Below, piece by piece: positions 1-3,000 of a DNA stretch of 29,485 bases (positions within the stretch are counted from its first letter, which is position 1; each line of letters starts with the position of its first letter). Position numbers: made by a program. The stretch comes from Pseudomonadota bacterium (GTDB lineage: Bacteria > Bdellovibrionota > FAC87 > UBA2466), in contig JAYUGC010000103.1 in NCBI GenBank assembly GCA_043767805.1, positions 1 through 29,485 on the forward strand, read 5' to 3'.

Positions 1-3000
1 CAGGGGGCCGTACGTAGCTCCCCGTGGCACTTGTCGCAACGGTACTTGTGCCGCTTCTGCTCCACGACTAGGTACTGTTTGGGGATGACCGGACTGGGAC
101 CAGCTCGTTCTGAACAATTTTCTCGAGCTTTGCCGGGATCGGATTCCGCCCGCTTACTTAAGCCTGCTGCAGACGGAAACCAAAAAAAAAGTGGTTTGTA
201 TTTTCCCGAAACGGTGGGGCAAGCAATGAGCGATTGTCCCATCCTAGTTTTAGTCGCCAAGCCAGGTCTCGACGGCCACGATCGGGGAGCCAAGGTGCTG
301 GCCCATTCCCTGCGGGACGCCGGCATGGAAGTCATCTACACGGGACTGCATCAAACGCCTGAGATGATCGTGAACTCCGCCATCCAGGAGGATGTGGACG
401 TCATCTGCATCAGGATTGTCCAAGTTGAAGTACGCCACTGCCGCTACGCTCAAACGATTCGGCGCGGCCATCGACAAGCTCGTGGCGGCGAGACTTTTTC
501 ACAACGATATCCACGTTGCGATTCTTCCGGACGGCTCTCTCAAATTCTACGACAACGATCTGGCCGCTCCCATGACCTTGCTGGGGCTTTCGCTCTTGGG
601 TTCCTCTGTTCAAGGGGACGATCAGACCCGGCCTTTTCTACTCCGGAGCGGCCGATGGTTTTCTTAAGGAAATGTCTAAAAGAAGATCCGAGCTCTCCTC
701 TAGTCCGTGTGCGGTCTGAGCCGTGTGGAACGAAGCCATGAGAAGTAGACGCGCGCGAGCGTGTCGTTAGATCCGGTCCTGAGTCTTATATTCGTCCATT
801 TTTTCCAGCTTTCGAGCAAAGTACCGAATAGGTAAATCGCTATCCGATCGCGCGCGTAATCCGATTGATGGCTCATGAAAGTGGCCACCGGGGTATCGAT
901 GAGCATCGGAAACACACTCAGGCGAATGGTTTCGTTCATTTCCTGCCGGCTTATCTGAAAAAAGGAATAGTGGTCGGACCAGCAGGCGCGCCCGCATCCT
1001 TTTCTCGGCATTACCGCTACTCCGCCGTACACGAAGCCGTTTTCGATTTCGGTCGTCGCCGAATAGAGCGTTCCCCAGACTTGCCGCCAAGCCTCGTAAA
1101 GCGGCGGGTGGACCGGAAAAATACCGAAGTGAACCGGCGTGAGCTGGAAACGGGTCATGTAGGGCAAAACTCCGGATTTCGATGCCCACGCCTTGGATTC
1201 GTTCATCAGTGAAATAAGGTCCTTCACGGAAAGGGGAAGCACGCTTTGATGTTTCGGAAGGTGGTCGAACCAGAAAAACTGATCGCGGGCTTCGACGAGC
1301 GCCCGGTCTCCGGCTCGGTCGTCGAACGGAAATTCCCCGTACTGAGCTTCGTACCAGCCCGAATTGAAACCCAGATTGAAACGGAATCGTTCCCCTATGA
1401 GAGCCGAAAATCGGGCTTGAGTTCGTAGAATGGCCTCTACATCGACACGCTGGATTTTTACTTTCTGTTTCTTGGGGTCCGGATCCCAATTAGGCTGAAA
1501 GATATCGTCAATATCAATCCCGAGCCACCGGGAGGTCATTAACGGGAGAGGGGCCGGAGAGAGCCACCGCAAGGCATCTAGAAAAAGTAAATCCCCCACC
1601 CAGTAACGTACGAAATCGTGTCCGTTGAAAATCCGGCGGATTCCATCAAACCGACCCGGGTCCAGCATGAGGCTGGTTCCGGCCGTTCTTCTCGCGTCGG
1701 TTTGCAGCACGGACTGATAGGGCTTGCCTCCATGGAAGTGGACGCCCCAGCCGGGCAGCGCGGCTCCCGCTTCGTAAGCTGCCCGCGTAAGATAGAGCAC
1801 GGGTCCCGCGATCGCCCGGGGCGAAGTCATTGCCCCACGTGAGCCGGTCGTAAGTTCTCCCCCGTTCAACGAGGCATTGGCTTTTACGTAAAGGAAGTAG
1901 GCACCGACCCCATAGGTGCGGCAGTAGCGGTCGAGGACCGCTTTCTTTGAAGGGGAAAGGCTCGCGTACGCTCCATAGTCGGTGAATAGGAGAATGGAGT
2001 ACCGGCCGATGCCGCTCCGAACTAGGGTCGGGTTGCCATCGATGGGCGAGCTCTCGAATGGGAGATGCTGATTGGCCAGAATACCGGCTGCGTTCCGCGT
2101 GTAAGTATGGTGGCGCGGCACCTCTCCGCCATGGAGGATTAAGATTCTTGGTTCGACCTGGTAGGGGCCGGCCGTCAGACAAGCGGCCCCAACGAGCCCT
2201 GCTAAGGAAAGGAGTAAGCCCCATCGGTATGACCGGTTCATAAAAACCCGAGCTCGAGAATCTGCCGTTTGAGCGCCGGAGCGCAGGTGAAGAAACTCGT
2301 TTCGCGCAAGTCTTGCGTGCCAGTGAACGAGAACCATTCACTGCCGGCCTCTTCGATGAGGCGTCCCACCAGCGTGCCGAAGAGCGGGATGCCGCGGATA
2401 AAGCTGCGGGTGCCGTTGACCGGAGTCATGTTCTCCTTCATCTCGATGAGGATCGGCGTGCGAAAATACTGGAGAGCGGTGTGCGAGGCATTTTCCGCAA
2501 TGTAGACGACTTCCTGAACCAGTTCGGCGTAATCAGACATAGGCCTATTCTGGCCGAAAACCGCACGCCCCGGCAAATGCTTATCAGTGATGGATGGGCC
2601 GCATAGCCGTGACTGGGATATTCCGGCCCTCTTTTCCGATTATGGTGAGATACGTCAATCCCGTAGTGGGGTTAGTCGAAAGAAAAAGCCGTCCCTCAAA
2701 CAGGGTAAACCATAAATCCAGTCCATTTGGTTCGCGCTGGATTTCGACACCACCCATTAAGCTAATCGCCGTTTCGCCCGTCCTTCCATTTTTAACCTCT
2801 TGTACAGCGCGGTGGATACCCCTGCGCACTTCTTTGGCATCTAAAAAAAGAATTTTATCAGGCCTAGATCCCGAAATTGTGGGTTCCACAACTTTGGAAG
2901 CAATAGAATTTGGATCTCCATATTCTTGCCATAGCTTTTCAAAAGCTTCCGAATTCAATATATGTTGCTCATTTGAAGCCAAATCGAGTTTGAGGGCAAC

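Follow-up and report, generated by a model that had tools for sequence, protein, structure and literature searches.

A rare stand-alone bacterial homologue of the animal NDST deacetylase module with a complete predicted active site

We observed that the window, by which we mean the whole 29,485-nucleotide stretch of contig JAYUGC010000103.1 (assembly GCA_043767805.1), carries at the contig end a gene (g02273) for a 513-aa protein, P0001, together with the features collected in Table 1. Pfam assigned two families to P0001, HSNSD_N (PF25119; residues 46-227, E 6.1e-17, 62.4 bits against a gathering cut-off of 27.4) and HSNSD-CE (PF12062; residues 238-439, E 1.7e-28, 100.1 bits against a gathering cut-off of 25). 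Both score above their gathering thresholds and are arranged in the order seen in NDST. No other Pfam family matched at E<=10, including Sulfotransfer_1, Sulfotransfer_3 and Polysacc_deac_1 (CE4, NodB, PF01522), and an NCBIfam search of P0001 returned no match. A phmmer search of the PDB aligned query residues 63-501 to four NDST1 sequences (9f6z, 8cd0, 8ccy and 8chs) at E 1.1-1.2e-51, and the C-terminus of P0001 is the counterpart of NDST1 residue 581.

Table 1 Features at the deacetylase locus, with positions in the window.
Feature	Positions	Strand	Evidence or remark
Convergent ORF with partial B12-binding domain (positions 2-71 of 121)	1..741	+	Overlaps 3' end of deacetylase gene
NDST-like stand-alone deacetylase gene P0001 (g02273)	700..2241	-	513 aa; ATG 2239-2241, stop TAG 700-702
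(beta/alpha)7-type carbohydrate-esterase domain, HSNSD-CE	703..1539	-	About residues 235-513; Pfam E 1.7e-28
H458, putative catalytic acid (NDST1 H529)	868..870	-	Alignment to NDST1
R413, 'PR' motif	1003..1005	-	Invariant Arg; aligned to NDST1 LPRQ
H327-x3-H331, metal ligands (HLPKH)	1249..1263	-	Alignment to NDST1
D245 (putative base) and D246 (metal ligand), motif DIDD	1504..1509	-	Alignment to NDST1
N-terminal alpha/beta/alpha domain, HSNSD_N	1540..2157	-	About residues 29-234; counterpart of NDST1 NTD and Agd3 CBM87-type domain
Signal peptide, lipobox-like ...LVGAAC (Cys21)	2179..2241	-	Permissive lipoprotein pattern
orf112, internally deleted inositol-monophosphatase-family remnant	2238..2576	-	NCBIfam HisN motif, E 9.7e-9 over 20 aa
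orf141, ORF without family match	2584..3009	-	Atypical composition, GC3 0.43
Exported esterase (PF00756) with N-terminal CBM20-like domain	3058..4251	-	Esterase E 1.5e-26; in non-syntenic patch
Myo-inositol-1-phosphate synthase (MIPS)	4258..5679	-	First gene syntenic with same-genus genome G171

The AF2 model of P0001 (pLDDT 91.6, pTM 0.87) was confident throughout residues 30-510, with pLDDT below 50 at residues 1-25. Foldseek matched the model to NDST1 at E 3e-40 (TMq 0.81) and to Agd3 at E 2.4e-22 (TMq 0.75). By VIA, model residues 29-513 aligned with residues 81-581 of NDST1 (8ccy; Z 39.8, rmsd 2.2 A over 436 residues, 30% identity), spanning the N-terminal alpha/beta/alpha domain and the (beta/alpha)7 deacetylase domain, and Agd3 (6NWZ) aligned with Z 26.4 and 3.6 A over 465 residues at 16% identity. 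CE4 structures superposed on the CE domain only (Z 15-19), and the N-terminal domain by itself matched ThuA-like and IFT52-N folds (Z ~14.5-14.9). P0001 is thus predicted to fold like the NTD and deacetylase domain of NDST1. The first-pass annotation had described a stand-alone homologue of these two domains without a sulfotransferase domain, and Pfam, the PDB search and the predicted fold all confirm this. These data support the view that P0001 is intact, exported and truly homologous to the N-terminal and deacetylase domains of NDST.

The signal peptide was recognized by a permissive lipoprotein pattern of our own, modelled on the PROSITE rule; its LVGAAC sequence does not match the strict L-[AS]-[GA]-C lipobox form. 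Of 17 full-length bacterial homologues, 10 have a lipobox-like Cys after a hydrophobic stretch, and an acidic or Pro-rich linker often comes next. Judged from these sequences, P0001 is probably lipid-anchored.

We mapped P0001 onto NDST1 by means of the phmmer PDB alignment and the residue roles given in the available passages of PMC10864358, which also report that Ala mutants of NDST1 at the five counterpart residues are inactive. NDST1 D319/D320 correspond to D245/D246 of P0001, H389/H393 to H327/H331, and H529 to H458. The Asp-His-His metal triad, the neighbouring Asp base and the His acid of the NDST module are all present. The five residues, together with D243 and R413, were invariant in 15 of 15 aligned bacterial-type homologues, which bears out the earlier statement that the catalytic and metal residues of NDST1 are kept. 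By analogy with the role described in the available text of PMC12022489, R413 may correspond to the Arg in motif 3 of CE4/CE18 enzymes that activates the base.

HMMER searches returned 327 homologues at E<=1e-3, 166 at <=1e-10 and 52 at <=1e-30, and so reproduced exactly the counts previously noted (327 and 52). In a domain scan that covered 70 of the 150 matches listed, the 14 best matches were proteins of 285-614 aa with HSNSD-CE scores of 64-111 bits and no sulfotransferase domain; among the matches listed, those of NDST length scored 200-372 bits for HSNSD-CE and carried Sulfotransfer_1. Among the 401 genomes sampled from the source phylum, PF12062 was present in just one, the source genome itself, and it was found in 0 of 14 control genomes. 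Sequence clusters of the bacterial family hold 1-4 members, in agreement with its description as very rare. A related-locus search with P0001 alone gave one genome locus. An alignment-based metagenome scan gave 16 loci, of which L003 is identical in sequence to L002 and L010-L018 are eukaryote-like fragments broken up by introns, and a homologous-protein search seeded with the alignment added no further members. One bacterial member, P0005, comes from a Myxococcales MAG, and the other annotated members are labelled 'hypothetical protein'. A full-text literature search, covering journals outside subscription, found no report on bacterial NDST homologues.

A profile of the bacterial family matched NDST1 at 2.5e-87 and found two of three tested same-phylum Agd3_CE proteins (6e-10 and 1.5e-8), but missed Agd3 (6NWZ) in the PDB at E<=10. 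Maximum-likelihood trees under two models placed the bacterial clade as sister to the metazoan NDST clade, sponges included, with the bacterial Agd3 (CE18) homologues far outside both. Profile and trees thus sustain the proposal that, among prokaryotes, the bacterial clade is the closest relative of the animal module. When rooted with Agd3-like outgroups, the bacterial and metazoan clades were reciprocally monophyletic. Like-for-like AU tests, in which the alternative roots were represented by fast-search constrained trees, rejected none of three alternative roots, with p values of 0.35-0.55 for the two that nest animals inside the bacterial diversity. The tests thus fix no direction of transfer. 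One might envisage the bacterial clade as the surviving source or sister of the metazoan NDST module, with an exopolysaccharide-maturation deacetylase entering the animal stem lineage before the sulfotransferase fusion, and with some members perhaps acting on heparosan-like polymers; taken as a whole, we hold this scenario to be speculative and somewhat unlikely.

Synteny with the same-genus genome G171 ends at the MIPS gene which, being the first syntenic gene, marks the edge of a variable patch. Inside this patch, the stop of orf112 overlaps the deacetylase start by 4 bp (ATGA), and orf112 aligns, over three segments that are 80-94% identical in DNA, with an intact 273-aa Inositol_P gene of the same assembly (C187:26734-27555; tblastn and blastn). 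The adjacent orf141 may not be a gene. On the other side, the convergent ORF is probably a gene remnant, because it is patchily similar to C153 of the same assembly (window 92-599 against C153:5087-6437, three pieces, 71-86% identity). Since C187 and C153 carry intact versions of the genes whose deleted copies form the flanks, the data argue for a patch that is native to the genome rather than a chimeric join. The deacetylase gene has a GC3 of 0.644, compared to 0.67-0.79 in 16 neighbouring genes, and was found neither in G171 nor in the 399 further genomes sampled from the phylum. It is probably a horizontally acquired orphan in a rearranged patch. A promoter and terminator scan gave 0 promoter-like sites.

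The exported esterase in the same patch has a CBM_20 match (1e-4, 22.5 bits) just below the cut-off of 23.3, and its proximity could suggest degradation of a foreign polymer and not maturation of the cell's own. The decayed remnants either side of the deacetylase would also fit a dispensable passenger, against a role in exopolysaccharide maturation. The MIPS gene and the inositol-monophosphatase remnant suggested a GlcNAc-inositol (mycothiol or GPI-like) deacetylase. We dropped this candidate because P0001 is an exported protein whose two domains would form a cleft of the polysaccharide type, synteny stops at MIPS, and other homologues are not near inositol genes.

The first-pass annotation had stated that no polysaccharide-synthesis gene lies beside the deacetylase. 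This holds for the window and for the related loci L004 and L006, in which no glycosyltransferase, exporter or other exopolysaccharide gene adjoins it, but not for the related genomes G401 and G402, in which a conserved exopolysaccharide-type operon ends in the deacetylase. In G401 (locus L002), the same-strand order is HEAT, GT2, u394, u430, TPR, u765 and the NDST-like gene, and G402 fragments retain the orders HEAT-GT2-u394, TPR-u765 and u765-deacetylase at 42-60% aa identity. The best NCBIfam match of the G401 GT2 is PgaC_IcaA (128.7 bits, below the equivalog cut-off of 422), and the TPR protein weakly matches the YaiO outer-membrane barrel. An Atlas search with the 765-aa operon protein returned unnamed families only. 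In the phylum of G401, the deacetylase, u765 and GT2 each occur in the same 2 of 17 genomes. Five loci had usable flanks, and this arrangement, observed in a single lineage represented by two related genomes, points to exopolysaccharide maturation with the deacetylase last, as with PgaB or Agd3. Elsewhere, a Pel9A-like beta-helix lyase lies two genes from the deacetylase in L006, and a GH123-like hydrolase lies nearby in L002.

The source genome has no homologue of u765 and only a weak match to the G401 GT2. Its sole PgaC-like synthase candidate, on C35, shares a contig with the single CE4 deacetylase of the genome and therefore has no obvious need for P0001. Two Sulfotransfer_3 genes (on C157 and C85) are unlinked to the deacetylase. 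A GT64 search was silent in the source genome and equally so in the control genomes.

We compared P0001 with characterized deacetylases. NDST carries a Golgi membrane anchor and a sulfotransferase domain, whereas P0001 has a bacterial lipoprotein-type signal and no sulfotransferase domain. The HSNSD-CE score of P0001 is 100 bits, compared to 200-372 bits in the animal members, and the bacterial family forms a separate clade; P0001 and NDST1 have in common the metal triad as well as the residues for base and acid. The Aspergillus fumigatus enzyme Agd3 (CE18 and CBM87) is a known structural cousin of NDST1 according to the available passages of PMC10864358, and the modelled P0001 resembles its two-domain core fold at only 14-16% identity. 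Agd3 deacetylates a secreted polymer in a way that depends on a metal, and by analogy we propose the same for P0001. Bacterial Agd3 homologues in exopolysaccharide operons were published in 2020 (PMC7229062, available passages), which describes CE18 Agd3-type clusters of a glycosyltransferase, GH114 and a membrane protein; the deacetylase of L002 likewise stands in a synthase-type operon. No cluster of this type was present in the window, and GH114 was absent from the source genome and not seen in the G401/G402 operon. The third, C-terminal domain that the same source describes for Agd3 has no counterpart in P0001, in which the two aligned domains take up the 513 aa; Agd3_CE proteins of the same phylum are ~698 aa long. 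Agd3_CE (PF25115) was found neither on P0001 nor in the source genome, with a control search positive in Deinococcus radiodurans, and as the family profile also misses 6NWZ, sequence membership in CE18 was not found.

With respect to CE4 enzymes, PgaB is an outer-membrane lipoprotein deacetylase. In G401 and G402 the exported or lipid-anchored deacetylase occupies the place of PgaB or IcaB, its neighbours including a PgaC-like GT2 and a protein of TPR/porin-like type, an arrangement absent from the window, L004 and L006, and the CE domain of the P0001 model has the CE4 fold. P0001 differs from PgaB and IcaB in lacking Polysacc_deac_1 and in having an N-terminal domain of another kind, and the G401 GT2 falls under the PgaC equivalog cut-off. 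PelA (CE21, 9cgy) is a periplasmic exopolysaccharide-modifying deacetylase with the same catalytic layout, but lacks the activating Arg, according to the available text of PMC12022489, whereas R413 is invariant in the P0001 family. Its Foldseek match to the P0001 model was weak (E 1.9e-8, TM-score only 0.28).

We favour, with a probability of roughly 0.55, the reading that P0001 is an exported, probably lipid-anchored, metal-dependent de-N-acetylase for polysaccharide N-acetylhexosamines, and that the most likely role of its family is exopolysaccharide maturation, as for PgaB, IcaB, PelA and Agd3. The signal peptide with Cys21 would take the protein across the inner membrane. The N-terminal alpha/beta/alpha domain may lengthen the substrate groove, as suggested by what the available passages of PMC10864358 say of the NDST1 and Agd3 N-terminal domains. 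D246, H327 and H331 of the (beta/alpha)7 esterase domain would bind a divalent cation, D245, oriented by R413, would activate the metal-bound water, and H458 would donate a proton to the leaving amine, yielding acetate and a cationic GlcN or GalN residue. We infer this chemistry from NDST1 mutagenesis and from knowledge of CE4 and CE18 enzymes.

P0001 had previously been read as a heparosan-type (GlcA-GlcNAc) N-deacetylase. Such an enzyme, equivalent in function to the NDST deacetylase domain, might target a K5-like capsule or the glycosaminoglycan of a host or of prey. NDST1 is indeed by far the closest characterized relative, the whole two-domain module is kept with many motifs besides the five catalytic residues, and the genome encodes the two unlinked Sulfotransfer_3 proteins, but an identity of ~30% cannot fix substrate specificity. 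We found no evidence for a heparosan-type substrate: neither a heparosan-synthase-like nor a sulfotransferase gene is linked to the deacetylase in the window, L002, L004 or L006, and the informative context among relatives has a single PgaC/NodC-like GT2 as the sole conserved partner synthase. From such a GT2 one would expect a beta-linked polymer instead of the alternating alpha/beta backbone of heparosan. Heparosan deacetylation is also promiscuous, as a 2026 report (PMC13353177, available text) describes it for E. coli-expressed CE4 enzymes, for Agd3 (CE18) and for two animal ND domains, and a positive assay would therefore not establish heparosan as the native substrate. We consider this substrate quite unlikely. 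The same report weakens the practical promise that had been attached to P0001 for heparosan work, although the enzyme is still worth trying.

Alternatively, P0001 could be a degradative or offensive enzyme that is exported and, together with the CBM20-like esterase next to it, attacks polymers of foreign origin, for instance the peptidoglycan of prey or competitors, chitin or a biofilm matrix. The MIPS homologues in named MAGs (71-77% identity) carry Deltaproteobacteria, Bdellovibrionales or Bdellovibrionota labels and fit the phylum Bdellovibrionota, which contains predators; both proteins are exported and encoded on the same strand of the same non-syntenic patch, and the Pel9A-like lyase of L006 and GH123-like hydrolase of L002 are in keeping with polymer breakdown. 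However, the esterase accompanies none of the other homologues examined, its CBM_20 match is below the Pfam cut-off, and the conserved G401/G402 operon is biosynthetic in kind. Since the gene was not found in the remaining 400 genomes sampled from the phylum, it does not belong to a conserved set of predation genes, and a degradative role appears unlikely. The gene might also be a dispensable passenger, horizontally acquired, without a current role here and intact only as decay has not yet arrived. Internally deleted remnants on either side, the lack of partner genes, the contig-end position and the slightly low GC3 would agree with this, but the frame is full-length, every invariant residue of the family is retained, the model is confident over residues 30-510, the signal peptide is intact, and the 4-bp overlap with the upstream ORF may point to continued transcription. 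We regard this explanation as very unlikely and retain polysaccharide de-N-acetylation as our preferred reading.

NDST starts all heparan-sulfate modification and is regarded as an animal enzyme. In conclusion, we describe a distinct and very rare bacterial family that has the two-domain deacetylase module of NDST with all its active-site residues. For application, it could offer a soluble bacterial NDST-like enzyme, the need for which is lessened by the 2026 report (PMC13353177, available text). For evolution, it provides a prokaryotic comparison point for the origin of the module and its later sulfotransferase fusion. For microbiology, it represents a putative third kind of deacetylase for exopolysaccharides, in addition to CE4 PgaB/IcaB and CE18/CE21 Agd3/PelA, with one lineage tied to a PgaC-like synthase operon.

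The assembly (G000) comprises 4.52 Mb in 204 contigs, one of which (C103, 29,485 bp) is the window in its entirety. We observed an uninterrupted open reading frame of 513 codons on its minus strand. An in-frame ATG upstream, at 2337, would place 32 extra residues ahead of a typical signal peptide, and the start at 2241, which shares an ATGA with the stop of the upstream ORF, is therefore favoured. Pfam matched HSNSD_N (E = 6.1e-17) and HSNSD-CE (1.7e-28) and no further family even at E ≤ 10, and no NCBIfam model matched. Human NDST1 was the sole protein matched by phmmer in the PDB (1.1e-51, query 63–501). 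When this alignment was read against the residue roles given in PMC10864358, D245/D246 corresponded to NDST1 D319/D320, H327/H331 to H389/H393, and H458 to H529; the codon coordinates of these residues were verified in the window. Judged by its sequence, the deacetylase is an intact, predicted exported protein with the full residue set of a metal-dependent deacetylase. A divalent metal would support hydrolysis of the N-acetyl group on HexNAc residues of a polymer; D245 would serve as the base and H458 as the acid, assisted by R413.

Features in the window and at other loci that bear on the deacetylase
Feature	Sequence	Position	Strand	Remark
Convergent ORF	window	1–741	plus	B12-binding domain, partial only
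Patchy copy of C153:5087–6437	window	92–599		three pieces, 71–86% identity
NDST-like deacetylase	window	700–2241	minus	513 codons
orf112	window	2238–2576	minus	upstream of deacetylase, same strand
orf141	window	2584–3009	minus	upstream of deacetylase, same strand
Exported PF00756 esterase	window	3058–4251	minus	CBM20 match below threshold
myo-Inositol-1-phosphate synthase (MIPS)	window	4258–5679	minus	upstream of deacetylase, same strand
D-lysine 5,6-aminomutase alpha and beta, then MoxR-type AAA_5 ATPase and VWA protein	window	10764–14903	plus	just upstream: PilZ protein, response regulator, Crp-type regulator
Inositol-monophosphatase-family gene	C187	26734–27555		intact, 273 aa
Polysacc_deac_1 (CE4) gene with best PgaC-like GT2 candidate	C35	4507–8229		sole CE4 gene in G000
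Sulfotransfer_3 gene	C157	36318–37001		not linked to deacetylase
Sulfotransfer_3 gene	C85	21649–21939		not linked to deacetylase
HEAT-repeat, GT2, u394, u430, TPR, u765, NDST-like deacetylase	L002	1174–11476	plus	u, uncharacterised protein named by length
CE-only gene	L007	498–1445
CE-only gene	L008	160–1110
CE-only gene	L009	1440–2165		preceded by DUF362/4Fe-4S gene

The HMMER counts of the first-pass annotation (327 matches at E ≤ 1e-3, 166 at ≤ 1e-10 and 52 at ≤ 1e-30) were exactly reproduced. The 14 best matches in a search of 1.84 billion proteins were 285–614 aa long (HSNSD-CE, 64–111 bits) and lacked a sulfotransferase domain; those from P0023 onward were 786–1106 aa long (200–372 bits) and carried Sulfotransfer_1, in a domain scan that covered 70 of the 150 listed matches. 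Across 15 aligned bacterial-type proteins, 30 columns were invariant, including D243, D245, D246, H327, H331, R413 and H458. Of the 17 full-length members, 10 carry a lipobox-like Cys after a hydrophobic N-terminal stretch, and several others show an apparent N-terminal truncation or a plain signal peptide. Among 401 genomes sampled from the window's phylum, PF12062 occurred in G000 alone; the same-genus genome G171 (93% complete) lacked it. All 20 bacterial-type proteins checked had a cluster size of 1–4; their sole product name was 'hypothetical protein', and one (P0005) comes from a Myxococcales MAG.

A confident AlphaFold2 model built from the 15-protein alignment (pLDDT 91.6, pTM 0.87) predicts the NDST/Agd3 two-domain fold. 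It matched NDST1 in Foldseek (E 3e-40, TMq 0.81) and VIA-align (Z 39.8, rmsd 2.2 Å over 436, 30% identity; model 29–513 on NDST1 81–581), and Agd3 (6NWZ) in both (E 2.4e-22, TMq 0.75, 14% identity; Z 26.4 over 465, 16% identity). PelA (9cgy) was matched at a Foldseek E of 1.9e-8, and CE4 enzymes at about 5e-5 (VIA-align Z 15–19, CE domain only). The N-domain by itself resembled ThuA-like and IFT52-N folds (VIA-align Z about 14.5–14.9). At the sequence level the family is NDST-like, not Agd3-like: its profile matched NDST1 at 2.5e-87, whereas 6NWZ was missed at E ≤ 10. Agd3_CE (PF25115) had no match in G000, with a control genome positive. Three of the 401 genomes encode an Agd3_CE (CE18) homologue, each around 698 aa long (L035–L037, at G209:C2, G296:C1 and G206:C6), and all three genomes belong to one family (f10) other than the window's. 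Since the bacterial profile detected two of these three (6e-10 and 1.5e-8), the deacetylase, NDST and Agd3 families are remote kin.

We then placed the family in a tree of 57 rows, hand-picked from listed matches and loci, with one duplicate removed and every row trimmed to the profile envelope: 17 full-length and 10 short bacterial-type proteins, 20 with a sulfotransferase domain, 7 other long proteins, and the Agd3-like L035–L037 as outgroup. The quick PMSF tree recovered a bacterial-type clade (27 rows, SH-aLRT 97) and an animal-type clade (27 rows, 91), separated the ingroup from the outgroup (100), and placed the root between the two clades. In the full LG+G4 tree, SH-aLRT/UFBoot values were 95.1/93, 97.4/97 and 99.4/99, respectively. 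The organism names found in the animal-type clade were those of two sponges (Sycon, Oscarella), one acoel, one snail and one jellyfish. In like-for-like AU tests on fast-search trees, none of three alternative roots was rejected: animals grouped with two bacterial rows (p 0.35–0.38), the root next to the short CE-only clade (p 0.545), and bacteria within animals after two sponge rows (p 0.416). This bears out the earlier concession that no direction of transfer can be read from the tree. Our best estimate is that the two clades are sisters, with a root that the outgroup does not fix because its branch is too long (about 2.3 changes per site). A CE-only subclade (100/100) within the bacterial clade comprised six members, each roughly 300 aa long and without the N-terminal domain, with entries at L007–L009 and P0040, P0052, P0054 and P0065; the remaining short rows, on contigs of 1.1–3.7 kb, are probably fragments. 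P0022 (651 aa, 2.6-kb contig) has a long branch (1.6–2.3) and long low-complexity poly-Ala, poly-Ser and poly-Thr inserts of eukaryotic flavour, so the 'bacterial-type' clade may not be purely bacterial.

From MIPS rightwards, the window is syntenic with G171 (abhydrolase, DUF4292, Crp, response regulator; 75–93% identity). Synteny breaks off at MIPS, and G171 has no counterpart of the esterase, orf112, orf141, the deacetylase or ORF 1–741; the region downstream of MIPS differed in each of five relatives compared. MIPS homologues at 71–77% identity came from MAGs labelled Deltaproteobacteria, Bdellovibrionales or Bdellovibrionota, consistent with the phylum originally given. orf112, which lies downstream of MIPS and adjoins the deacetylase start, is a copy with internal deletions of the C187 inositol-monophosphatase-family gene (three DNA pieces, 80–94% identity). 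As ORF 1–741 is likewise a patchy copy, from C153, the deacetylase is flanked by decayed duplicates on both sides. GC3 was 0.644 for the deacetylase gene versus 0.67–0.79 for 16 other window genes, and 0.43 for orf141. This ORF had no family match and no paralogue within G000; it represents foreign DNA or is no gene at all. Together, the synteny break, flanking remnants and GC3 suggest that the deacetylase gene is an orphan within a patch that has been rearranged, is decaying and was probably acquired horizontally. The remnants link this patch to G000, which argues against a chimeric join.

Five loci in relatives had usable flanks. In L002 (249-kb contig of G401, a genome of another phylum; L003 is the same sequence), the NDST-like gene closes a same-strand run, followed by a cation-efflux gene and a GH123-like hydrolase. 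The top NCBIfam model for its GT2 was PgaC_IcaA (128.7 bits, far under the equivalog cut-off of 422), with weaker matches to NodC and cellulose synthase models; the TPR protein weakly matched the YaiO outer-membrane barrel, and u765 (765 aa) belongs to a widespread unnamed family, at times fused to TPR or Por_Secre_tail. Deacetylase, u765 and GT2 each occurred in the same 2 of 17 genomes of that phylum, G401 and G402. The orders HEAT-GT2-u394, TPR-u765 and u765-deacetylase are kept on short G402 contigs (C268, C784, C549) despite 42–60% amino-acid identity, which argues for a functional unit, in two related, non-independent genomes. The unit would be a synthase-dependent exopolysaccharide system with the deacetylase in the role of PgaB, Agd3 or PelA. 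Exopolysaccharide-synthesis genes of the G401 kind were absent from the flanks of L004 (Na/H exchanger, enoyl-CoA hydratase, GST) and L006 (Pel9A-like beta-helix, P450). G000 itself had 46 GT2 matches; the best PgaC-like candidate among them and the CE4 gene are some 2.6 kb apart on C35 and may form a PNAG-like locus. One of the two Sulfotransfer_3 domains lies N-terminally in an ORF that is at least 791 aa long. Searches of G000 found neither GH114 nor a u765 homologue.

The first-pass annotation proposed a heparosan-type substrate. We found no specific support for this. Promiscuous deacetylation of heparosan is also seen in several unrelated deacetylases (PMC13353177). The G401/G402 operon and the roles of Agd3, PelA and PgaB point to a putative role in exopolysaccharide maturation. 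A 2020 paper (PMC7229062), which nowhere mentions heparan, reported EPS operons that contain bacterial homologues of Agd3 (CE18), and Agd3 is identified as a structural relative of NDST1 in the paper on the NDST1 structure (PMC10864358). Full-text searches of the literature outside subscription journals turned up no account of bacterial NDST-type proteins. In conclusion, the kind of enzyme is already known; what is new is the variant, a bacterial, lipoprotein-type sister family of the metazoan module, without the sulfotransferase, which is of evolutionary and of moderate practical interest.
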